The notes beneath the pieces were generated by a model. The model did no database searches. It had not been told where the DNA came from and was given only the letters and a program-made list of their open reading frames with translations. 64,000 bases of DNA from Planctomycetota bacterium. Its GTDB lineage: Bacteria > Planctomycetota > UBA1135 > UBA2386. The stretch is from the NCBI GenBank assembly GCA_965223545.1, contig OZ245006.1:544001-608000 (forward strand), in the 5' to 3' direction. Position 1 is the stretch's first letter. Each line of letters opens with the position of its first letter. Of the stretch, positions 919 through 63,807 are shown one piece after another. The translations under genes were made by a program, and so were the position numbers.

Positions 919-1215
919 GCAAGCGTCCGGTGAAGGCATCTCGAAAGCCGCTGGCGGATCGACAGGATGCGGCGGATGACGAAGAGAACCCCCGTGTGGG
1001 CTCGTGCGGAGATGCGCGAGCTGCTTCAAGAGCTGGACACCTCAGGCGTGACGGTCGCCGAGTTCGCGCGCCGCGCGCCGGCGTGGTGTCAACGCAAACC
1101 GCATCTACTGGGCAAGGCGGCAAGCCCGAGCTGTGGCGGCGCCTACGTCCGCGCCGGTGGTGTCGAACTTCGGGGAGCTGGTGGTCGCCGCAGACTGGAC
1201 ACACGCTGCCTCTGA
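919..1215 (+). mobile_element. IS66-family remnant: left-IR-like end and a degenerate TnpA accessory-protein fragment
   Basis: gcaagcgtccggtgaaggc at 919 resembles IS66-type ends (GTAAGCGTCC...). The following peptide EMRELLQELDTSGVTVAEFARR resembles the TnpA N-terminal HTH pattern, then drifts out of frame. No TnpB/TnpC follows. Confidence 0.5.
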
Positions 1216-1446
1216 CGCGGAATACCGTCTCCCTCTACTTGGCCGAGCGACGACAGCCGGAGGTATGTGGCGGCTTTCTCTGCCTTCTTGAAGGCTAACT
1301 CCCGGTAGTAACGAGGAAGCGGGCCAGAACTGTCGCCGCTTCCCAAGAAGCGTTGACGGTCGCCCCGACAGTGATACCACGCGATCAGGGCGTGGGCTTG
1401 GGTCCGAAGGAGACTTGAGGCCGGACGGCCGAGACGAGCAGTATCG

Positions 1447-2697
1447 CTACCGCCGTCTGGGCGGCGAGTCGCTATCGGCTCTGCGCTGATCGAACAGGTC
1501 TTGCTGGACCGTGGTCCCGGTGCCACCCGAGGACGATTCGCCTCTCGGAGCATGAGAAACTGGCTGCACGATCACCGAAACCCCCGGCAGGACCTCGATT
1601 GAACTCGCGTGATGCTTCGAGTCCTCCGATGCCACTCGACCCGTCATCCGATACTCCTCAAAGTTCGAATCACAGTCCGGGTAGTCATCCAGTGACACCT
1701 TACGCTGTAGCTCCCTGAGCAGCAGGTGGCGGAGCGGACCTTGGTCGGCGAGGACGAACTTCCCATGCAGCCCCGCCAGCAGGCCATACCATGGAAGCGT
1801 CTGATACAACGCCGACGGCATGACCAAGTGAGCATGATCGAAGCTGCCTGGGCTGACTCGACTCAGCAGATAGGCCCCGATGAACGCCGTCGCCAGACTT
1901 GGCCTCACGCCCCTAAGCGCGTCCAGAGCACGTTCAACATAGGCGACCCGGGACTCTCTGGAACCGGCTGTGTCGCGGTGAGCGTGCCGAAGCCAGTCAT
2001 GCCCTTCCGTCAGACGCTCCCAGGTCGATCCGGACACCTCCCCACGGCGACTCACCTCTTGGCACGCAGTTCGGATCCCAGGATCAACCGGCGCGTCCAG
2101 TGGAATACCCTTCGGTAGAAGTCCAGCGATCGCAGCCCACGGAGCGAGCAACGGCTCGGCGATGCGCCCTGAGGCGTCCGACCGCCGCCGCGTTTGCCGC
2201 CACGCTTCGCTCACCCTCGCAGCCGGAAACGCTGCCCCATAGACCGCGATACCTCGCGCTATCGCGAATGCATGGGTCGCACGATGCGCGAGAAAAGACA
2301 ATCGAACCCGATCACTTCCGGGACCGGCGAGCATTCTCAGCTCGCCGAGGACAAGCCCTATGCAGGCATTCTGTGCTGCGCCGAGCCCCGGAAAACCGGC
2401 CGCACCCTGACTGAGGGCCGCGTCACTTGATGAGATGACCCGACAGAACGCGGAGAGTGGTCTTGCTCCGCCGACATAGGTGCTCGACCACGCCAAAAAA
2501 TCCGTCAGCCACTCATCCTGGACCACGATGGCAGCGGGCCATTCGAAGTGCTTCTTCGGTGAAACGCCCCAATAAATGCCAGCCAGATCACCAGAGACGG
2601 GCTCAAGCTTGCTGGTTCGACGAAGCTCAAGGTCGCCGATTTCGCGATCCTCCAGGACATCGACGAGTCGGCGGCGATTCAGTTCTGCCACCCACAT
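1447..2697 (-). CDS. Hypothetical protein (~416 aa), third gene of the kinase-helicase operon
   Basis: The ATG at 2697 (MWVAELNRRRLVDVL...) overlaps the helicase TGA (TGATG coupling), so the longer 2907 start is unlikely. No motif recognised. Confidence 0.75.
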   Translation of the reverse strand: MWVAELNRRRLVDVLEDREIGDLELRRTSKLEPVSGDLAGIYWGVSPKKHFEWPAAIVVQDEWLTDFLAWSSTYVGGARPLSAFCRVISSSDAALSQGAAGFPGLGAAQNACIGLVLGELRMLAGPGSDRVRLSFLAHRATHAFAIARGIAVYGAAFPAARVSEAWRQTRRRSDASGRIAEPLLAPWAAIAGLLPKGIPLDAPVDPGIRTACQEVSRRGEVSGSTWERLTEGHDWLRHAHRDTAGSRESRVAYVERALDALRGVRPSLATAFIGAYLLSRVSPGSFDHAHLVMPSALYQTLPWYGLLAGLHGKFVLADQGPLRHLLLRELQRKVSLDDYPDCDSNFEEYRMTGRVASEDSKHHASSIEVLPGVSVIVQPVSHAPRGESSSGGTGTTVQQDLFDQRRADSDSPPRRR

Positions 2698-3866
2698 CAG
2701 GACAGACCTCCGCCGAAGACGTCGTCCAGACTCGGCGGCTTCCGGTCTGGATTTGCAACTCGCCCAACGGCTTCTCCGAAGAACCCTATCAAGGAGCCGG
2801 AGTGGTAGATCGAGAGGGTCGATTGCGCCCTCGTCACAGCAGTAAATGCGGCATTTCGGGGCATCGGTATCCCCCGAAGGGTCTCCGCAAGCGGCATGTG
2901 AAGACAACGAAACTCACAACCCTTGGCGGAGTGGATCGTCGCCACGTAGACCTGCTTGCCAGACTCGAACGAGATATGGCTATCTTCGTCCTGCGACGAA
3001 ACCTGACCTGCGAAGGCAGATGCTTCAAGCGCAGTCCGAACCTCCGCCAGAGACTGCTTCTTCGGCAGGAGGACACCGATGATCTCTCCTGGATACGCTC
3101 GAATCTGCAACTCGATTCGAGCCACCATGGCCGCCAACTGCTCTTGGGAAGTTGCCATCTTCTCCAAGTGCAACTCGCTCGGGTTCTCCTTCTCGTCGTA
3201 GTTCGAGCAATCAACAAGTGGCGGGAAGCTACCCGCGACCTTTGCCAATCCATCCGCGACTGCGCAGATCTTCCGACCGCAGCGATGGTGATGCTGAAGT
3301 TCGGACACGGAGGGCGTCAAACTCCGCAGATCCTCGTCAGTCGCGTTGCCTTGGTAGATCTGTTGTCGGGAGTCAGCGACAAAGAACAGCCTCTCCGCCA
3401 GACGCTTGAAGAGCGCAAGCTCTTCCGGTCTGTAGTCCTGCGCTTCGTCTACCAAGATCGCGCTATACGAATCCTCCAGGTTCCGAGCAGCCACAAGCTC
3501 TTCGAGCTGGCCCAGGAGCTTGCGCCGTGACTCATCGAAGCTGTCCTTGTCGGTGCTGTTCGGGGTCACGCCGTGCTCAGCGAGGAACTTCCTTTGCCAG
3601 TAGCCGTAGGTCTGGACCTTGTCAGCGGGAAACTGATATCGGTCACCGCCGTAGGAAATGAATTCCTTCAAGGTCCGAGTGAACGTGAGAATCAGTATGT
3701 TCTCTCGACCTGCGAGGAACAGATAGTTCGCTCTCAGCACCAGGAGATTGGTCTTCCCCGAGCCTGGAGGACCAAGCACAAGGTGGTCTCCGTCAACCGG
3801 AAGGGCGATCACTTGGCGCTGCTCGTCAATCAGCTCCGACTTTCCGACCCACCAAGACCCCTTCAT
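2697..3866 (-). CDS. Compact superfamily-1 (UvrD/Rep-like) helicase/ATPase
   Basis: Motifs: EQRQVI (Q), GPPGSGKT (Walker A), LTFTRTL (Ia), VDEAQD (II), ADSRQQIY (III), TIHSAKGCEF (V), AFTAVTRA (VI). Only 389 aa. Confidence 0.9.
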   Translation of the reverse strand: MKGSWWVGKSELIDEQRQVIALPVDGDHLVLGPPGSGKTNLLVLRANYLFLAGRENILILTFTRTLKEFISYGGDRYQFPADKVQTYGYWQRKFLAEHGVTPNSTDKDSFDESRRKLLGQLEELVAARNLEDSYSAILVDEAQDYRPEELALFKRLAERLFFVADSRQQIYQGNATDEDLRSLTPSVSELQHHHRCGRKICAVADGLAKVAGSFPPLVDCSNYDEKENPSELHLEKMATSQEQLAAMVARIELQIRAYPGEIIGVLLPKKQSLAEVRTALEASAFAGQVSSQDEDSHISFESGKQVYVATIHSAKGCEFRCLHMPLAETLRGIPMPRNAAFTAVTRAQSTLSIYHSGSLIGFFGEAVGRVANPDRKPPSLDDVFGGGLS

Positions 3867-5219
3867 CTACGCTTCCTCCCCGTCGGTTTGTAGGAACGGC
3901 GTGAGTTCGCCTTCTTGGGTCTGTGCCGCGTCGATCGTGAGCAGGACACGGTGGAACATCTCCTGCGATAGCGCGCTCGGATCAACCGGACTCGCGAACT
4001 GGATACCAACTCCACTGCCTTCTGCCGAATCGCTTCGTGATGCCGAGGCAGTCACGGTCGCCACCTCGTCGGACGACGGATCCGCCTCCAGGCAGAATCG
4101 AACAGTGATCTTGAACGGAATCCTGTGGACCTCGGAAGCCGCCAAGTCGAGTTCGATCCGAAAGCGTGCTTCGGACTCGCGAGATTGACGAATCACGATG
4201 GGAGGAATCGACGACTCCGCTGTGCACAGATCTTGGAGCCTGGCCTTCGCGTGCGCGACCGACCGCTCGAATCCTGCCTGCGACCCATAGCTCGGCTGCG
4301 GCTCCGCCACACCTGAAACCCGACTGCGAATCCGCTGCCGCAGTCGCTCCGTTGAGGGGATGGTGTCGCGATCTCTTCGAGAGAAATCTGACCACGACAC
4401 CAGTTGCAGGCGCTGCTCCGGGTCTTTCAGGAGGCAGTTGCGAGCGACCTTGACGAGTCCCGGGTCAAGACCCTCTGGGAACGTAGGAACCACTGTCCTC
4501 ACAGCCTCTACCATCTTCGCGTAAGGGCTGAACTCACCGAACAGCGGCTTCCGAACGAGCAGGTCGTGGAGCAACGCGCCAAGCTGATAGAATGTCAGGG
4601 CAAGACCGCCACGGGGAGTGTCTTGCTCCTCACGCACCAGAAACTCGGGCGAGCTGTATTGAAGCGTGCCGATGAAGTCATCGCGACTCGTCGAGGGATC
4701 GGCATCAAGGATCCGAATGACGCCCAGGTCGAGGAGAACCGCTTGCGAGTAGTCCGGGCTGAGGACGACGTTGGCTGGTTTGATGTCTCGGTGAACAATC
4801 CCCCGGTCGTGCAGGAAGGCTGCGGCAGACGCTACCTGCTCAATGAGTGCCGGGACGGACTCAACCGGCACTTCGCTCAGTGATCGCTGGACGTTGGTCC
4901 AGCCCTCAAGCAGCTCGGTCACGACGTAGAGGTGATTTGTCGCCCCACACTCCCCACCATCCAGCACTCGGATGAGGTTCGGGTGAGACTCCCCGACAAG
5001 CGTCAGTTCTCGTTGGATACGGTCGAGCTGCTGACCCCTCCCGTATTCCTCCACCAGCTCCGGTTCGAAGATCTTCAACGCGGCCTGCTCACCAGCGTCG
5101 TTGGTGGCTACGAAGACGGCGGCAGACTTTCCGTTGTCGAGATACCCGGTTATCTTCCAGCCACCAACTGGAGCACCTTGCAGTTCGGCCTGGAGTGCTA
5201 TTGCTCGCGCTTCGTTCAT
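3867..5219 (-). CDS. Soluble Hanks-type Ser/Thr protein kinase with an unknown C-terminal domain
   Basis: GYLDNGKSAAVF Gly-loop, AALKIF, HRDIKPANV, DLG, GTLQYSSPE. No TM segment. Its stop directly abuts the helicase ATG. Confidence 0.9.
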   Translation of the reverse strand: MNEARAIALQAELQGAPVGGWKITGYLDNGKSAAVFVATNDAGEQAALKIFEPELVEEYGRGQQLDRIQRELTLVGESHPNLIRVLDGGECGATNHLYVVTELLEGWTNVQRSLSEVPVESVPALIEQVASAAAFLHDRGIVHRDIKPANVVLSPDYSQAVLLDLGVIRILDADPSTSRDDFIGTLQYSSPEFLVREEQDTPRGGLALTFYQLGALLHDLLVRKPLFGEFSPYAKMVEAVRTVVPTFPEGLDPGLVKVARNCLLKDPEQRLQLVSWSDFSRRDRDTIPSTERLRQRIRSRVSGVAEPQPSYGSQAGFERSVAHAKARLQDLCTAESSIPPIVIRQSRESEARFRIELDLAASEVHRIPFKITVRFCLEADPSSDEVATVTASASRSDSAEGSGVGIQFASPVDPSALSQEMFHRVLLTIDAAQTQEGELTPFLQTDGEEA

Positions 5220-5784
5220 CGTGAGTCCAACCGAAGTCGGTGGACGAGACTGCCCACCGTGCAGGATGGGCGCGGAAGATTCGACATCGTTCCACCGGAT
5301 CAGAACTGCGTTTCCAGGCGCGCAGGGCCATGGACTTCGACACCTGGTGGTTGGCGCTTGACGCCGGGTGGCACTTCAGCAGTCCGCGAGAGACCCAGCA
5401 AGACCGACGCTCAAGAACCCGGACATTCTCGCCGACTCCATCCGTGCCACCCGAGAGCACCCGAGGCCGCAACCTCTTGCGTTGTCGAGATTTCGCGGAG
5501 CCACCGGCAACGGAACGCCGCCCGCTTCTCCGGCTCCACGGCGGCCCTACTCACCCCTGGGTGCGGCAAGAGCGAGAACCCGGCGACTACGACGTGGGGG
5601 CGATGCGGCCGGTCGCCGCGACAGTCCAAACTTTGATTCTCGCCTGGCTCAAGAGTCAGGTTCATGCGATCGCCTGAGGGCGAACTGGCGGTCGGTCCGC
5701 GAGGGCGAAAACGGGCGAAGGATTTCTCCCAGAAGTGCACCCAGGTGCTCTCGGAAGCGCCCGACTGAAACCTCGTGCACCGGC

Positions 5785-5813
5785 TTGCAACCGTCCCCAA
5801 GCGGCCGTAGCTT
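5785..5813 (+). promoter_or_regulatory. Putative sigma70-type promoter of the tRNA
   Basis: TTGCAA (5785-5790), 17 nt spacer, TAGCTT (5808-5813), about 60 nt upstream of the tRNA. Confidence 0.4.
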
Positions 5814-5874
5814 GCGCTCCGCTCGGCGCTTCAGGGCGCTTGAGCCGCTTCAGCGGGTCTCCCTGCGAAGTCGT

Positions 5875-5950
<76 letters not shown>

Positions 5951-8815: not shown

Positions 8816-9514
8816 TCACTCGCGGCCTTCGAGCCGCGCCAGCAGCGCGAGGCTGGCTCGGCTGACGAGATTGCGAACCGAGTCCACGGTGCGGCCCATG
8901 CGCTCGGCGATCTCTGCTTGACTCAGGCCAACGATGCGCGCGAGCAGCAGTGCTTCGCGCTGGGCCTCGGGCAGACCGTCCATCGCCGCTTCGATGCGCT
9001 GCGCCTCTTCGTCGGCGATCGCGTTCTGGCTCGGGCTCGGCTCGAAGCTGCAAAGGCTCACGTAGATCCCGACCGAGGTCCGCCCCTGCCCAGCGCGCAC
9101 CTCGCGCCCGGGGTCGCGCCGCTGCGCGCGGTGAAACTCGCCTTTCTGCCGGACCTTGTTGAGCGCGGCCGTGAACAGCCAGGCGCGGAAACTCCCGGCC
9201 CCGCGGAACTCGAACTTCGGCAGATCCTCGAGGACTTCGCGGCAGATCGACTGCACGAGGTCCGACCCCGACTCGCGCAGCCGGAGGCGCGCATCGCTCT
9301 GCAGCCGGACGAATGCGCGCAGGTCGTCGAGGTGCTCACCAATGAGCTCATCGATGGCCCCGGGCCGCTGCTGCTGTGCGGCAACGAGCAACATCTCGGT
9401 GCGGTCGTCGGATCGGCCGGTCCGCGGAGAGTCTTGCACGCGAAGATTGTAATGTAGCCGAGCACGCTCCGACTCTCGTCTGTTGGAGTCCACCCAGCTC
9501 CGCACGCAAGGCAT
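8816..9514 (-). CDS. ECF-type RNA polymerase sigma factor (true start may be further downstream)
   Basis: Region 2: DLVQSICREVL...SFRAWLFTAALNKVR. Region 4: LPEAQREALLLARIVGLSQAEIAERMGRTVDSVRNLVSRA. Confidence 0.92.
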   Translation of the reverse strand: MPCVRSWVDSNRRESERARLHYNLRVQDSPRTGRSDDRTEMLLVAAQQQRPGAIDELIGEHLDDLRAFVRLQSDARLRLRESGSDLVQSICREVLEDLPKFEFRGAGSFRAWLFTAALNKVRQKGEFHRAQRRDPGREVRAGQGRTSVGIYVSLCSFEPSPSQNAIADEEAQRIEAAMDGLPEAQREALLLARIVGLSQAEIAERMGRTVDSVRNLVSRASLALLARLEGRE

Positions 9515-9546
9515 CGAAGGCGCCCTGACGTATCCTGCTCATCGCG

Positions 9547-12813
<3,267 letters not shown>

Positions 12814-34944: not shown

Positions 34945-37419
34945 TCAACGCTCGCGAAACGCAGCGAAGGCGCGGCGATGCCGCGCAAGCTCGCGGTCAC
35001 TCGACGCATCCACGGGCAGGGCCGAGAGCTCTTGTGCCACCTCCGTTCCGCGCGGGCCGTCGCCGTGCGCGTCCAAGGCGAGACCCAGCAGCTGCAGCAG
35101 CTTGCGTTGCATACCCAGGTAGCGCACGTCGCTGGGATAGGCCGCCAACGCCGCACCGTTGCTGCGCGCCCCGGCTTCGACGACGTCGATCAGCTCGTCG
35201 AGCTCCGCCGCGCCGCCGGCGAGCTGACCGACGAGCGCGGAGCCCAGCTCGTACGCCGCCTGGCCTCGCTTGTGCGCGGACTCGAGCACGTGCGGGAACT
35301 CGGTCAGCAGCTGCTCGAACGCGACGATCGCCTGGCGCAGCCGCACGATTCCGCGCGTCACCTCGCCCGCGGCCAGCTCGAGCTTGCCGGCGAGCAGGTG
35401 TCCGTCGGCGACGATCTCGGCGCCTTGCCTGCGCTCCGGGTGCGCCTCCGCCGCGCCGTGCCCGAGCCCGATCGCCTCTTCGACCAACGGCAGGGCTGAT
35501 TCGAATGAACCGGCGCGGGCGTGGAACAAGGCGCGCGTGGTGAGCGCCTTGGCGAGAGTCGGGGCGTTCTCGGGACCCTCCGGCCAACGCTCGACCAACT
35601 CGCGCGCCAGCGCCAAGGCGCCGTCGACGTTGGCGACCGCGTCGCGCATCGCACCATCCGGACCGAGCACGAGCTCGCCGAACTGCATGCGTTGCTCGGC
35701 AAGCCAACGCAGGTGCAGAGGCTCCTGCGGCTGCGCGACCCGCAACGCCACGAGCTCCATCTCGGCGCGGTGGAACCACCGCGCCGCCTCCTCGCGCCGG
35801 CCGGCCAACGCATGCAGAGGGTGCAACATGCAGCAGACCTTCGCATAGGAGGAGGCGAGATCCGGCTCCGCGTCGGCGGACCGCCGCAGCTGCTCGAGTG
35901 CGGTTGCGGCTTCTTCCAACTGCTCCCGCGCCTCGCCAATTCGGCCAATGGTAAACAGGCCCTGGCCGAACTCGACCTGACGGCGGGCAACGCGGACCTG
36001 CAGATCGCGGCTGTCCGGCCGGCGCGCCAGCAGCCGTTGCAACGCCTCCAGCGCATCGCCGCGGAAGCCGACCTCGATCTCGGTCGCGCGCGGCACGTTC
36101 GCCAAGTGCACCTCCGAGCCGCGCACCAACAACTGATCGACGGTATCGAGCGCATCGGCGAGATCCCGATGCGCCAGAAGGGTCTGCTGCCGCGCCTCGC
36201 GGAGACCGAGCCCCACGCCGACCAAAGCCATGGTCAGGCCCAGCAAGAGCGCGAAGCCGAGCGCGAAGCCGACGCGGTGCCGGCGGACGGCCTTGCAGAC
36301 CGCGTAGACCTTGCTCGGCGGAGCGGCGACCACCGGATCGCCGCGCAGGTGGCGGCGCAGGTCGTCGCCAAGCTCGGCGACCGAGCCGTAGCGCCGGTCC
36401 GGCTCCGGCGCGAGCGCGCGCAGCGCGATCCAATCGAGCTCGCCGTGCAGCCGGCGGCGCAGCAAATCGACCGTCGCGCGCCGACTCCGCGCGACTGCGG
36501 CGCCCGCGCCGGCGAGGCCGTGCACGCGCGCACTCGGCGACGGAGGCCCGGCGGCGTCGCGCAACGGCGTGGCGCAGTCGGCAGGCAGCTGGCCGGTGAA
36601 CAACTCGTAGAGCACGACGCCCAACGAGTACACGTCGCTCCGCGTGTCGATGCCGGCCGCACCTTGCCCGGCCTGCTCGGGGCTCATGTACGCCGGTGTG
36701 CCGATGATCTCGCCGACCTCCGTATGCACTGCCCTCTGTTGCGCGCTGTCGTCGACCGCCTTGGCCACGCCGAAGTCGATCACCACGGGAACCGCCGTGC
36801 CGTCCCGCTCCCCCACGAGGATGTTCGACGGCTTGAGATCGCGGTGGATCAGGCCGCGCCGGTGCGCGTGCTGCACGGCATCGCAGACCGGCAGGAGCAG
36901 CTCGATGCGCCGCTCGATGCTCAGCTGGTGCGCGTCGGCGTAGACGGTGATCGGCTCGCCTTCGACCAACTCCATCGCGAAGAACGGACGACCGTCGGGA
37001 ACGATCCCCGCGTCGAAGATCGTGGCAACGTGCGGATGGCTCAAGCGGGCGAGCGCCTCTCGCTCGGACTCGAAACGGGCCAGCAGACCCTCGGTGTCCA
37101 TCCCCCGCTTGATCAACTTCAGCGCGACGCGCCGCTGCACCGGCCGCTGCTGCTCGGCGAGCCACACCGTGCCCATGCCCCCGGTGCCGAGCCGTTCGAG
37201 GATGCGATACGGGCCAAACGACTCGAGCGTGTCGAGCGGTCCATCGGCGCCGACCAACCCGATGCCGCGCAGCCGCTCGAGCCGCTCGCGCACGGCCTCG
37301 GCGAGCTGCGGCTCGTCGGCGCAGACCACGGACACCGGATCCGGAGCGCCGCGCTCGAGCTCTTCGACGCACTGCGCCACGAGCCGTTGGATTCGGTCTG
37401 CTGATGGCGATCCGGCCAT
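34945..37419 (-). CDS. Ser/Thr protein kinase with a TM segment and a TPR-like helical C-terminus
   Basis: LGTGGMGTVW, VALKLIK, HRDLKPSNI, IDFGVAK, GTPAYMSPE, DVYSLG. TM GFALGFALLLGLTMALVGVGLGL. Confidence 0.93.
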   Translation of the reverse strand: MAGSPSADRIQRLVAQCVEELERGAPDPVSVVCADEPQLAEAVRERLERLRGIGLVGADGPLDTLESFGPYRILERLGTGGMGTVWLAEQQRPVQRRVALKLIKRGMDTEGLLARFESEREALARLSHPHVATIFDAGIVPDGRPFFAMELVEGEPITVYADAHQLSIERRIELLLPVCDAVQHAHRRGLIHRDLKPSNILVGERDGTAVPVVIDFGVAKAVDDSAQQRAVHTEVGEIIGTPAYMSPEQAGQGAAGIDTRSDVYSLGVVLYELFTGQLPADCATPLRDAAGPPSPSARVHGLAGAGAAVARSRRATVDLLRRRLHGELDWIALRALAPEPDRRYGSVAELGDDLRRHLRGDPVVAAPPSKVYAVCKAVRRHRVGFALGFALLLGLTMALVGVGLGLREARQQTLLAHRDLADALDTVDQLLVRGSEVHLANVPRATEIEVGFRGDALEALQRLLARRPDSRDLQVRVARRQVEFGQGLFTIGRIGEAREQLEEAATALEQLRRSADAEPDLASSYAKVCCMLHPLHALAGRREEAARWFHRAEMELVALRVAQPQEPLHLRWLAEQRMQFGELVLGPDGAMRDAVANVDGALALARELVERWPEGPENAPTLAKALTTRALFHARAGSFESALPLVEEAIGLGHGAAEAHPERRQGAEIVADGHLLAGKLELAAGEVTRGIVRLRQAIVAFEQLLTEFPHVLESAHKRGQAAYELGSALVGQLAGGAAELDELIDVVEAGARSNGAALAAYPSDVRYLGMQRKLLQLLGLALDAHGDGPRGTEVAQELSALPVDASSDRELARHRRAFAAFRER

Positions 37420-37899
37420 GGTCGGGTGGCGACGACTTGGCGTCGCCCAGCCCATTGTGCCGCCACGAGAGCTCCCGCACGAGCCTCCCTACGGGCGGGG
37501 GGACGAGCTCGGATTCCGTGAATCCGCGAACATCGCCCCGCGGCGTGTCGCTCTTCCCTCTTGGCAACCACCGGCACGTGCCCGGAGTCACCGCATGCTA
37601 CGCAGTTCCATTCGCTCTCGTGCTTGCCGTCCGCGCGTGCCGGACAACTCCGACCCAGCTGTTCTCGGCCACCCCCGTGTCGTCGACGCCGGTGATCGCC
37701 GACGTCGCCTACGACGCGACGCATGACGTCTACCGGGTCGCCTGGCAAGAGGGCGGGTCCGGCCGAATCCCGAGCGCCAGGCGGAGATTGCCGATCGCAT
37801 GAACCGGAGCGCAGGCTCGGTCCGCAACCCTGCCAGCCGCGCCAGCCTGGCCCTGCTGGCACGGCTGGAGGGCGGCGCGTGAGCCGCCCCCCGTCCAGC

Positions 37900-61143: not shown

Positions 61144-61218
61144 CGCCAACCACCCGCGGCTCGCTCCTTTCTTGGGATGATCTGCATCCTGAGGGGAGCT
61201 CCCGCGGAAGAAGTCGCG

Positions 61219-63807
61219 ATGACCGTGCCTACCGTCGAACAGGACTTCGCCCGGTGGCGCGCGCGCTGTGATCCACGGGCGCTGGAACGCGTGTTCGACG
61301 CGCTGGCTCCCGAGCTACTCGTCATCGCGCACCATGTCGCCGGTGCGCAGCCCGCCGAGGACCTCGTGCAGGCCACGTTCCTCGCCGCGATCCAGCACGG
61401 CGACCGTTGGGACGCCGCGCGCCCGCTGCTGCCCTGGCTGATCGGCATCCTGGTGCGGCACGCCCTGCGCGAACGCGAGCGGCTGCACCGCCGTCCGGAC
61501 CCGAGGCGGCTGCCGGTGCGCTCGACCCCCGATCCGGCAGAGGTCGCCGAAGCCGAAGAGCTCGCCGCCGCCGTCGACGACGCGCTGCGGCAGCTGCCCA
61601 AGACCTACCGGCAGACCCTCGCCCTCCGGCTGGTGCACGGCCTCACTCCCACCGAGATCGCGCACGCGCTCGGCGAGCCGATCGCCACCGTCAAGAGCCG
61701 GCTGGCGCGCGGCCGAGAGCTGCTCCGCCGCGCCCTACCCGCCGGTGTGCACGCACCCGGCGCGGCGTTCCTCACCGGCATGCCCCTCGAGCAAGTGCGC
61801 GCCGAGATCCTGAACGCGGCGGCCCGACACGCCTCCTTCACCGCGGCGACCACCACCGCCGCGGTTGCTCCATCGATCGGAATCGCCATCATGACGCCCA
61901 AGCTGATGCTGTCCGCCACCGCTGGTCTCGCGCTCACCGGAGCGCTGGCGCTGGCTTGGTGGGTCCCCCACGCGCGCCTTCCCGATCCAGAAACCCCGGC
62001 GCAGAGCCAGACGCCCGCCACAGTGGTTGCGCCGCCGGGCGCACCGGACACGCCTGCGGCGGCGGCGAGCGCCGATCCGCGGGTCGCGCTCGCGCCGGCC
62101 ACGTCGACCGCCGATGACGCGACCGAGGCGGGCGCTTTCTTCCACGGCCGCGTCGTCGACGAGAACGGCCAGGGGATCGCCGGCGTCACCGTGCTGCTGG
62201 GGTTGCCCGGCCGCACCGACGCGCTACGGAGCGAGGCGAATTTCTTGATCGACCGTTCGGTCAACACCGGCGAGATCCGGACTCCGGAGGACGGCGCGAA
62301 GACCGCGACCGCCGCGGACGGCGGCTTTCGCTTTCGACGTCCGGACGATGCGATGCACCGCGCCCTGGTGGCGTGGTCGGCGGAACTCGGCTGTGCTCGG
62401 GTCGAGCTCCCCCCGGAGCACGTCGGCCCGATCGACATCACTCTGGCTCGCGGCGAAGCCCTCGCCGGCACCCTCCGCGACGCCACCACGCAGCAGCCGA
62501 TCGCGGACACGCACGTGTCCTTCTATCCCGAGCGCAGCGGAATGCCGATCGCCTGGCCGCAGACCGATGCCCTCGGGCGCTTTCGGACACCGCCGCTGCC
62601 GGTGCAGGGCTACCGCGCGATCGCCCGCCCGGACGGCTTCGTCGAGGTGGACCAGACCGTACCCGCAGGCCAGCGCGAGCTCCTGCTGGAGGCGGATCCC
62701 TTGCCACGTCTCGACGCGGTGCTCGCCAACGCGAACGGCACGGCGTGGACCGCGGCGCGCATCGCCGACGCACTCGGCGGCGACCGGGCGCTGCGCTTCG
62801 AGCTGACCGCGCGGCCGTACGACCGCTACAGCGCGTTGACGGCCGACCACTTCGACCGGGCTCGGCTCGAGCTCGAGCTCGAGCTCGAGCCCGACACCGG
62901 GTCGTTGCGCGGGGCCGTCATCGACACCGACGCACGGCATCTCTCCGTTTGGGACAGTGGCAAGCGCGTCGGCCAGGCGGTGCTCGACGACTGGCACACG
63001 AAACACATCCTCATCGAGCTCGCGCCTGAGCCAACCGTCAGGCTCGGCGCACGCATTCACCTCGATCCCACTCCACGATCTGCGGTCGAGATCGAGGCCA
63101 CCTTGACCGATGGACTCCGGCGCAGCGTGCCCCTGGCGACCGCGCGCGGCGACGGCCTGCTCCACTTCGACGTGCCGAGCCACCTCTCCGGCCACCGCTG
63201 CGGCCTGCTGATCGAGGCCGATGGCTACGCCGAGCACTTCGCCATGCTCGAGATCCCGACCGCGGCGACCGAAGCGTGGTACACCGCGACGCTCTCGCCC
63301 GCCGAGTGGACCGCGCACGGTCAGGTGCTCGGGCCCGCAGGCGGACCGCCGACGGCGGCGACGGTCACCGTGCTGCGGGCGGACGGCACTCCCCTACTGC
63401 GGCCCGAGCGGGCCACCGTGCTGCCGCGCGACGACGGCCTGTTCCGCTTCGAAGGCCTACCGCGCGCACCCGTCTGGGTCATGGTGCAGGCCGATGGTTG
63501 CGCGGCGCATGGCGTAGAGATTTCCGCCGACACGACGGAACCGGTCACGGTCGAGTTGGCGGCAAGCCGCGAGCTCGAGATCCAGTGCACCGCGAGTTCG
63601 AAGAAGCAGTACCGGATCCTGGATGCACAGGGCCGCCCGCTCCTCGACGACCGCTGGGCTGGCGTCTATCGATTCGGGCACGGTACCCACTTGGACATCG
63701 GCGCGCGTGCCGCGACGGTCGAGGTCTACGACACGGTCAGCGGCGAACTGCTGGGCAGCGGCGCCGTGCCGGCGAACGACGCGCTGGAGATTCGCGCACA
63801 CCAGTGA
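61219..63807 (+). CDS. ECF sigma factor fused via a TM helix to carboxypeptidase-regulatory-like beta-sandwich repeats
   Basis: AEDLVQATFL, LLPWLIGI, LPKTYRQTLALR...EIAHALGEPIATVKSRLARGRELLR. TM AGLALTGALALAWWV. GRVVDENGQGIAGVTV, TDALGRFR, DDGLFRFEGLP. ATG 61219. Confidence 0.88.
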   Translation: MTVPTVEQDFARWRARCDPRALERVFDALAPELLVIAHHVAGAQPAEDLVQATFLAAIQHGDRWDAARPLLPWLIGILVRHALRERERLHRRPDPRRLPVRSTPDPAEVAEAEELAAAVDDALRQLPKTYRQTLALRLVHGLTPTEIAHALGEPIATVKSRLARGRELLRRALPAGVHAPGAAFLTGMPLEQVRAEILNAAARHASFTAATTTAAVAPSIGIAIMTPKLMLSATAGLALTGALALAWWVPHARLPDPETPAQSQTPATVVAPPGAPDTPAAAASADPRVALAPATSTADDATEAGAFFHGRVVDENGQGIAGVTVLLGLPGRTDALRSEANFLIDRSVNTGEIRTPEDGAKTATAADGGFRFRRPDDAMHRALVAWSAELGCARVELPPEHVGPIDITLARGEALAGTLRDATTQQPIADTHVSFYPERSGMPIAWPQTDALGRFRTPPLPVQGYRAIARPDGFVEVDQTVPAGQRELLLEADPLPRLDAVLANANGTAWTAARIADALGGDRALRFELTARPYDRYSALTADHFDRARLELELELEPDTGSLRGAVIDTDARHLSVWDSGKRVGQAVLDDWHTKHILIELAPEPTVRLGARIHLDPTPRSAVEIEATLTDGLRRSVPLATARGDGLLHFDVPSHLSGHRCGLLIEADGYAEHFAMLEIPTAATEAWYTATLSPAEWTAHGQVLGPAGGPPTAATVTVLRADGTPLLRPERATVLPRDDGLFRFEGLPRAPVWVMVQADGCAAHGVEISADTTEPVTVELAASRELEIQCTASSKKQYRILDAQGRPLLDDRWAGVYRFGHGTHLDIGARAATVEVYDTVSGELLGSGAVPANDALEIRAHQ

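Follow-up and report, generated by a model that had tools for sequence, protein, structure and literature searches.

The closest described relative of the locus considered here, DarHTG (Liu-DS3), is a single operon combining a UvrD-type helicase that lacks the 2B domain with DarT and with DarG3, a protein resembling the ADP-ribosylglycohydrolases (ARH); its defence requires both DarT catalysis and the helicase ATP site, and DarG3 acts as an essential antitoxin (accessible part of PMC13069673). The same accessible part describes Gabija type II, in which GajC replaces GajA as the effector beside a short superfamily 1 (SF1) helicase, and it proposes that the helicase partners of Gabija-type systems read single-stranded DNA (ssDNA) or DNA ends (PMC13069673). 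Here we analyse a three-gene operon in a 64,000-nucleotide stretch of a Planctomycetota bacterium (assembly GCA_965223545.1, contig OZ245006.1, positions 544,001 to 608,000; hereafter the window), encoding a Ser/Thr kinase, a minimal SF1 helicase and a third protein, ORF3. The unit probably represents a rare, mobile and apparently unnamed candidate family that defends against phages or other mobile DNA. The reading that we prefer, by a modest balance of probability, is that the helicase and ORF3 form the two-protein core of a system against phages or plasmids that is rare and has spread horizontally, the first gene being an exchangeable effector.

No named system in PADLOC 2023 or NCBIfam June 2026 corresponds to the triad, and no published description was found in the literature searched, which covers few subscription papers and no supplementary lists of predicted systems; the accessible part of the DefensePredictor preprint describes no such triad either. 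This agrees with the earlier note on this DNA, made by a model from sequence alone, which had recognised no named system. We regard DarHTG as the closest described system, a likeness by parts list to which no sequence link could be added. As far as DarHTG is described in the accessible text, both operons combine a UvrD-type helicase without 2B with an ARH fold (modelled on our side) and, by a weak structural match on our side, with a DarT-like fold. They differ in that DarHTG has DarT and DarG3 as separate proteins, whereas here both folds appear fused in ORF3, the ARH metal ligands are gone, no more than about 95 residues are left of the ADP-ribosyltransferase (ART) fold, and the operon includes an additional kinase or another enzyme. 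With the 2B-less helicase and the ARH fold present and no active DarT, we do not assign the operon to DarHTG.

Gabija offers a second comparison, again through a short SF1 helicase with an exchangeable effector, and one of the loci described below has a TOPRIM first gene; the differences are the absence here of an OLD-family ATPase-TOPRIM or MazF-like protein and the additional ORF3 core. We do not assign the operon to Gabija: GajA was matched by neither of the genes flanking the helicase, and GajB models matched piecewise only (best E 1.6e-18). In ARG-centred systems, the ARG protein is proposed to be active, to stand with phosphatases, chaperones and Nudix/WYL repressors, and to respond to phage-made ADP-ribosylation (accessible part of PMC9503650). 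As described there, these systems share with the present operon an ARH/ARG domain without an active cognate transferase, as well as variable effectors. We set this assignment aside because no phosphatase, chaperone, Nudix or WYL gene belongs to the unit and the predicted ARH domain of ORF3 has no metal site.

Stk2 is a defence kinase that acts by abortive infection, and the kinase here resembles the stand-alone defence kinases generally (PD-T4-6, Stk2, MAD6, PglW, PfkA/B of KKP, the HipA-like DS-6) in being soluble and a likely abortive-infection effector; it differs in being tied to a helicase–ORF3 core, with no phosphatase. Models of single-gene kinases of the PD-T4-6/Stk2 type match its generic kinase domain only, and the host's ordinary, housekeeping kinases score higher on the same models. 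MADS and BREX-2, whose operons contain a methyltransferase, are likewise set aside, the curated NCBIfam cut-offs being far from reached (61.9 bits versus 460 for MAD6, 24.7 versus 990 for PglW). Mokosh type I, in which MkoA is a kinase–helicase fusion accompanied by a PLD nuclease, and TerY-P are comparable in placing a kinase and helicase, or a kinase, in a defence operon; their helicase family and architecture are different, and the operon here has no PLD, vWA or PP2C gene. We rejected Mokosh type I because kinase and helicase are separate genes here, the MkoA match is confined to the kinase domain, and no PLD match was obtained.

Gene order and variation of the first gene

Through ORF3 we found 92 loci, to which L008 was added and from which L100 was dropped (no ORF match); two loci duplicating others were also removed before counting, and 74 are distinct at 90% ORF3 identity. 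Upstream DNA is present in 67 of the 74 (the other 7 have none), and in 66 of these 67 the gene immediately before ORF3 is the helicase; the lone exception, L058, carries an ORF3 truncated by a transposase. The gap between the two genes runs from -7 to 23 nt in 64 of the 66 loci. The conservation of gene order proposed as a check in the earlier note is borne out. In the window itself the kinase TAG abuts the helicase ATG, and the helicase TGA shares one nucleotide with the ORF3 ATG; both junctions were read from the sequence and confirm the three same-strand genes with zero spacing that had been noticed there.

The first gene is far more variable. Among the 52 loci with enough DNA, it encodes a kinase in 35, a protein that we label HEPN-like in 12, an ATPase in three and a TOPRIM protein in one, and one locus has none; kinase is followed by helicase in every kinase locus counted, all of them found through ORF3. 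The kinase is thus absent from 17 of the 52 loci, and these 17 are distributed over four distinct lineages of a helicase tree (a quick version). On this tree the HEPN-like loci form one clade and the ATPase loci another among widely spread kinase loci, with four changes in total; because the HEPN-like loci are a single clade, the 12 count as one event. Kinase, HEPN-like and TOPRIM genes all sit within about 20 nt of the helicase (-8 to 10 nt for HEPN-like, 7 nt for TOPRIM). The HEPN-like product is a 290-aa protein with a helical pattern and an invariant R253-H254-G255 (RHG), which may correspond to the Rx4-6H motif of a four-helix HEPN RNase domain; hhalign against an AbiJ_NTD4 protein was not significant. 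The TOPRIM gene matches retron RT-TOPRIM models. At the locus with no first gene (L023:5473-12186), the helicase–ORF3 pair is flanked by a divergent pair of a TIR protein and a short pAgo and by a convergent AbiJ_NTD4 (PDC-S32) gene.

Since it is the first slot that changes, and a nuclease-type domain fills it in at least one case, we take the helicase and ORF3 to be the core and the first gene to be the effector. The phosphorylation-controlled three-component module put forward in the earlier note is not supported in that form, given the loss of the kinase from these loci, with tight replacements in two lineages. As a rival reading, which we consider unlikely, that idea would make the kinase a regulator that phosphorylates the helicase or ORF3; the helicase–ORF3 pair would then be antiviral itself, for example by stripping or blocking phage DNA, and the loci with other first genes would be kinase losses beside unrelated defence genes. 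Such a role would suit the standing of the kinase as the commonest and most widespread first gene, the pair without a first gene at L023, the loose linkage of the ATPase variant, and three invariant acidic residues of ORF3 (E248, D343 and E348) that could form a new active site. It sits poorly with the HEPN-like gene, whose spacing is no looser than that of the kinase in all 11 loci measured across a diverged clade, and with the lack of a phosphatase gene in the unit, unlike KKP or TerY-P.

Predicted folds and conserved residues

That ORF3 shows no recognisable motif, as the earlier note stated, holds for profile libraries: ORF3 gave no match in Pfam, PADLOC, NCBIfam or PHROGs, two to four family members also went unmatched, and the ORF3 profile found nothing under E 0.08 in the PDB. 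The protein is not an orphan, however, as the family has 718 representatives at E<=1e-3 (50% clustering), most members being about 460 aa long, and its folds are recognisable. ORF3 and its two closest relatives (409–423 aa) form a natural short subfamily, in which most of the helical region near the C-terminus of the 460-aa proteins is missing and a charged tail is kept (window 1447–1560). Structure prediction, suggested in the earlier note as a check, gave a confident AF2 model (pLDDT 88.9, pTM 0.88), in which a weakly ART-like N-terminal fold and an ARH-like fold are followed by a beta/alpha segment, conserved in the family, and by a basic C-terminal tail (at least 5 K/R within the last 20 residues in 130 of 140 family sequences).

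When the model was searched against 48,161 chains with VIA, the top nine rows were all ribosylglycohydrolase-type chains or entries holding one, with Z of 8.8–10.6 and the next row at 5.2. These matches, which include MJ1187, ARH3, ARH1 and ART-ARH toxin-immunity pairs, align 198–223 residues over positions 106–333 at an rmsd of 4.5–4.9. Independently, a language-model feature search of the Atlas returned ADP_ribosyl_GH clusters at a borderline 0.90. We consider it highly probable, on the strength of this model, that residues 106–333 adopt the ARH fold. For the N-terminal part the outcome is weaker: residues 1–104 folded alone (pLDDT 89.7) placed ART folds at VIA ranks 1, 2, 5, 6, 9, 10 and 19 (DarT, Tpt1, two more DarT2 entries, CteC, DarT1 and TreTu), the best being DarT with Z 4.7 (rmsd 3.5, 87 aligned) and Tpt1 with Z 4.5, and unrelated rows at 3.8. 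The match is consistent but weak, and an ART fold, with its split beta-sheet core, is only somewhat more likely than not for the modelled domain.

Both domains are apparently catalytically dead, a reading prompted by absent catalytic and metal-binding motifs. Of the ARH metal motifs, [ST]DD occurs in 0 of 140 ORF3 sequences and DxD[ST] in 3 of 140, compared with 9 of 9 control ARHs for each; in a register drawn from a non-significant hhalign alignment and secondary structure, GLILGEA falls on GLAxGDA and CxST on TDDT. The first strand of the N-terminal domain is variable and without a conserved His/Arg, D66 is its sole conserved acid, and PF14487 (DarT) matched neither ORF3 nor anything else in the host genome. 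ORF3 therefore seems, as modelled, to be built from two disabled ADP-ribose-handling enzymes.

The helicase is a minimal SF1A protein (UvrD/HelD-like; Pfam UvrD-helicase and UvrD_C_2) with a reduced 1B domain. Its core SF1 motifs, already read in the single 389-aa sequence, are invariant in 121 of 121 relatives (Q16, K38, D140-E141, Q168, R195, K315, E318 and R346). Motifs IV and V are separated by about 90 profile positions (210–300), against about 250 in E. coli UvrD (residues 301–550), and hence 2B is absent, by alignment rather than by structure. The closest solved relatives are HelD (E 3e-20), UvrD, PcrA and GajB. Its family is a distinct one, with 921 members at E<=1e-30; a scan of 401 genomes from the host's phylum gave four matches at E<1e-126, followed by a best remaining match at 8.5e-19. 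A short helicase that is sister to this family (hhalign 99.7%, E 1e-25) follows DrmA-DrmB on plasmid P4 of Deinococcus gobiensis (L118:856-8827) and on a Streptomyces fungicidicus plasmid (L135:2020-8077); in D. gobiensis it is followed by a 576-aa protein whose N-terminus looks ART-like by eye and has no significant link to ORF3 or DarT. On an Antarctobacter plasmid (L117:3112-8543), an operon in which an Hsp70-family protein and a 456-aa protein accompany a more distantly related short helicase (E 4e-15) is possibly another system built on a similar helicase.

The kinase is of the Hanks Ser/Thr type (Pfam Pkinase, E 9e-28; domain about 20–280). Its glycine loop reads GKSA, a form specific to the family, and it has HRDIKPxN, DLG, and a Thr in place of the subdomain-IX Asp. 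All 29 kinases compared share K49, H143-R144-D145, K147, N150, D164, E192 and R270, and the features of an active Hanks-type enzyme (VAIK Lys, HRD Asp, Asn, DFG Asp and the APE Glu-Arg pair) are present as K49, D145, N150, D164, E192 and R270. The two atypical motifs singled out in the earlier note are real and family-wide: 26 of the 29 kinases have L165 of DLG and 28 have T209. They are family traits rather than decay. Also as noted there, the kinase is soluble: it has no transmembrane (TM) segment, its maximum 19-residue hydropathy being 1.25 against 1.94 and 2.25 for the window's two TM kinases. Its C-terminal domain (about 290–440) is variable, and an Atlas feature search with residues 285–445 gave no usable match.

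A very unlikely explanation of the same data is an accessory module for DNA damage or transcription stress, acting in HelD-like RNA polymerase recycling or in repair, in which the ARH/ART likeness of ORF3 would be a chance arrangement of helices. HelD is indeed the best solved relative of the helicase, and the structural Z-scores of ORF3 are modest, with no sequence link. A chance likeness is hard to square with nine of nine top structural rows from one family, a gap of 3.6 Z, and the borderline language-model match; nor would such a module be expected to be rare, low in GC and island-borne, or to have its first gene swapped with nuclease-type proteins.

Distribution, neighbourhoods and proposed mechanism

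Three sweeps of the phylum (401, 371 and 371 genomes), a check less biased than the loci found by pattern, gave 4, 3 and 1 matches, centres included; all five non-centre matches have the helicase directly upstream and four of the five have the kinase as well. The helicase and ORF3 families are confined to the same 4 of the 401 genomes of the host's phylum, and overall the unit is patchy, in about 1% or fewer of genomes sampled. ORF3 records come from Planctomycetota, Acidobacteriota, Bacteroidota, Bacillota, Ignavibacteria and Proteobacteria, with the full triad on plasmid records of Cupriavidus, Rhizobium and Ralstonia. In Ralstonia SL3022 the copy lies in an insert of GC 0.535 between flanks of 0.64–0.69, and GMI1000 lacks it at the corresponding site. 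Searches of viral contigs and phage records found no copy.

To characterise neighbourhoods, we scanned the nearest 121 of 324 neighbouring ORFs, within 1.7 kb at 57 loci, set aside four (core genes or wrong frame), and excluded generic PADLOC matches (kinases, ankyrin, HTH, IstB, TrwC/RecD, sigma-54 activator, weak DEAD-box, HEAT). Specific PADLOC models were matched by 26 of the remaining 117 proteins, in 19 of 57 loci: pAgo, Shedu, Hhe, IetA/S, PD-Lambda-2, HmaC, HerA, DarG, GmrSD, methylases, Vsr and several PDC candidates. Under the same exclusions 0 of 38 host genes outside the island matched, so the enrichment near defence genes that the earlier note had asked about is seen against this one-genome control. 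Pfam adds five loci (SRA-HNH, vWA-TIR, PIN, DUF559 and RelE); integrases, resolvases, relaxases and transposases are also numerous among its matches. In Rhizobium the operon stands next to a DUF1837–DEAD helicase (Hachiman-type) pair, with a DarT 8 kb away. No phosphatase, chaperone or Nudix/WYL regulator recurs among neighbours of the operon loci. Single loci have a DarG-type macrodomain (L020:13032-13646), an Arr-type ADP-ribosyltransferase (L038:12074-12484) or a Nudix gene (L040:2796-3887) adjoining the operon, too few for a pattern.

Conservation, co-inheritance, mobility and these neighbourhoods go some way towards the candidate conflict system first proposed for the locus. Plasmid copies and the mobile-element genes beside others, together with the patchy distribution, would also be expected of a toxin–antitoxin or addiction module of mobile elements, in which ORF3 and the helicase neutralise a toxic kinase and the unit is kept for the stability of the element. 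We judge this distinctly unlikely, because an ATP-driven helicase conserved in full would be superfluous in a module serving addiction alone, and because many bona fide defence systems are among the neighbours; the addiction and defence roles are not mutually exclusive.

Under the preferred reading of a helicase–ORF3 core with an exchangeable effector, the 2B-less helicase would load on ssDNA, DNA ends or replication intermediates produced by infection, using ATP. ORF3, a putative fusion of DarT-like and DarG3/ARH-like parts that have lost both activities, would serve as helicase partner and switch, and may have kept the ability to bind ADP-ribose, or nucleic acid or protein that carries it; it would bind the helicase and keep the kinase off until infection. 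The activated core would release the first-gene product, and the released kinase might phosphorylate host targets and arrest the cell (abortive infection), the effector elsewhere being a putative RNase or a TOPRIM nuclease. The whole would amount to a DarHTG-like chassis in which the system's own ADP-ribosylating toxin is dead and a borrowed effector stands in its place. More tentatively, and as a possibility we doubt, the fused and inactivated DarT–DarG3 pair could be a pseudo-enzyme ADP-ribose receptor. Together with the helicase it would protect the cell from ADP-ribosyltransferases of phages (T4 Alt/Mod type) or from ADP-ribosylated DNA, by triggering whichever effector is plugged in, be it a kinase, an RNase or a nuclease.

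Several observations weigh against the core–effector reading and the folds that it invokes. Most loci come from patterns of one ORF3 subgroup (A2), which biases the variant frequencies. The ATPase variant (Sll1717-family) is loosely spaced, 36–151 nt from the helicase, and may be just a neighbour. The HEPN-like label of the 290-aa protein is our presumption from a motif only, and the libraries gave it no family. The ARH match has an rmsd of 4.5 and a Z under VIA's caution line of 13 for helical proteins, and the ART-fold Z is below 5, a range that VIA calls common, with Foldseek not significant (Tpt1 E 2.5). A Foldseek search of ORF3 on PDB and BFVD returned nothing significant, with two viral ARHs at E about 1–1.6, and hhalign against nine ARHs, 16 DarTs, the Deinococcus gobiensis protein (five sequences) and the Antarctobacter protein was non-significant throughout; with both methods blind to it, the ORF3–ARH link is remote and structural only. 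The helicase is not nearer to GajB than to HelD, none of 30 DarT loci (+/-1.5 kb) has a helicase of this family, the neighbourhood control is a single genome, and 38 of the 57 loci have no specific defence neighbour among the genes scanned.

The unit provides a testable, apparently unnamed candidate defence family of 718 or more ORF3 clusters, and it lends a structural identity to a protein missed by four profile libraries. If the core–effector reading is true, a toxin–antitoxin system has been turned into a sensor–effector system, with its helicase kept, its enzymes silenced and a new effector plugged in; the natural swaps would offer a ready chassis for separating sensing from killing. If the receptor proposal is true, a bacterial immune sensor has been built from a dead writer–eraser pair, and bacterial detection of phage-made ADP-ribosylation, described as barely understood in the accessible part of PMC9503650, becomes testable.

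The host locus and its island

The coordinates of the operon and adjoining features are listed below. Each of the three genes is present in one copy in the host genome at the thresholds used. An assembly artefact is ruled against by run X4, possibly of the source study, in which one contig of 4806 nt spans 1104–5909 with zero differences, and by five short contigs of run X6, from another study, that match portions of all three genes at 96–99%.

Features of the operon and its surroundings (window positions)
Feature	Position	Strand	Remarks
Kinase gene	3867..5219	(-)	450 aa
Helicase gene	2697..3866	(-)	389 aa
ORF3 gene	1447..2697	(-)	416 aa
ORF3 residues 1-95, small alpha/beta domain, weakly ART-like (DarT, Tpt1)	2413..2697	(-)	folded alone, VIA
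ORF3 residues 106-333, predicted ADP-ribosylglycohydrolase (ARH/DraG) fold	1699..2382	(-)	VIA structure search
Multicopy repeat fragment (IS66 end/tnpA remnant)	921..1195		strand not assigned; blastn, 10 other genome places at 91-94%
Membrane-type ORF, 361 aa	1..857 (its 3' part)	(+)	start 228 nt before window; no family match
tRNA-Gly(CCC)	5875..5950	(+)	right edge of ~12-kb low-GC island

The lower-GC block and the flanking IS66-like remnant and tRNA pointed out in the earlier note are both confirmed. The GC of the operon is 0.602 against a genome mean of 0.697, a value equally low in 0.4% of 2137 equal-sized windows of the contig, and the operon is the right-hand portion of the island, which the tRNA bounds. 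One copy of the repeat closely precedes an IS66 tnpB-tnpC pair located 5' of the window (TnpB/TnpC Pfam matches). At the island, a search for an att-type duplicated tRNA end found none and no integrase was seen; for the operon, neither a sigma-70 promoter nor a terminator was found.

The part of the island to the left of the window contains an ISKra4 transposase, a DUF2971 gene, the IS66 element and the membrane-type ORF. The last (L001:17772-18857) has a GC of about 0.54 and is possibly another island defence gene; no linkage of it to the operon was found at other loci. The DUF2971 gene (L001:13993-14733), between the ISKra4 and IS66 elements, matches the PADLOC candidate PDC-S31. Elsewhere in the window, an ECF-sigma-like gene divergent from a TM kinase–WD40 gene (8816–12813), a second TM kinase (34948–37455) and a sigma-like N-terminus (61177–63807) are high in GC and look like host core signalling genes, the labels being assigned by eye.

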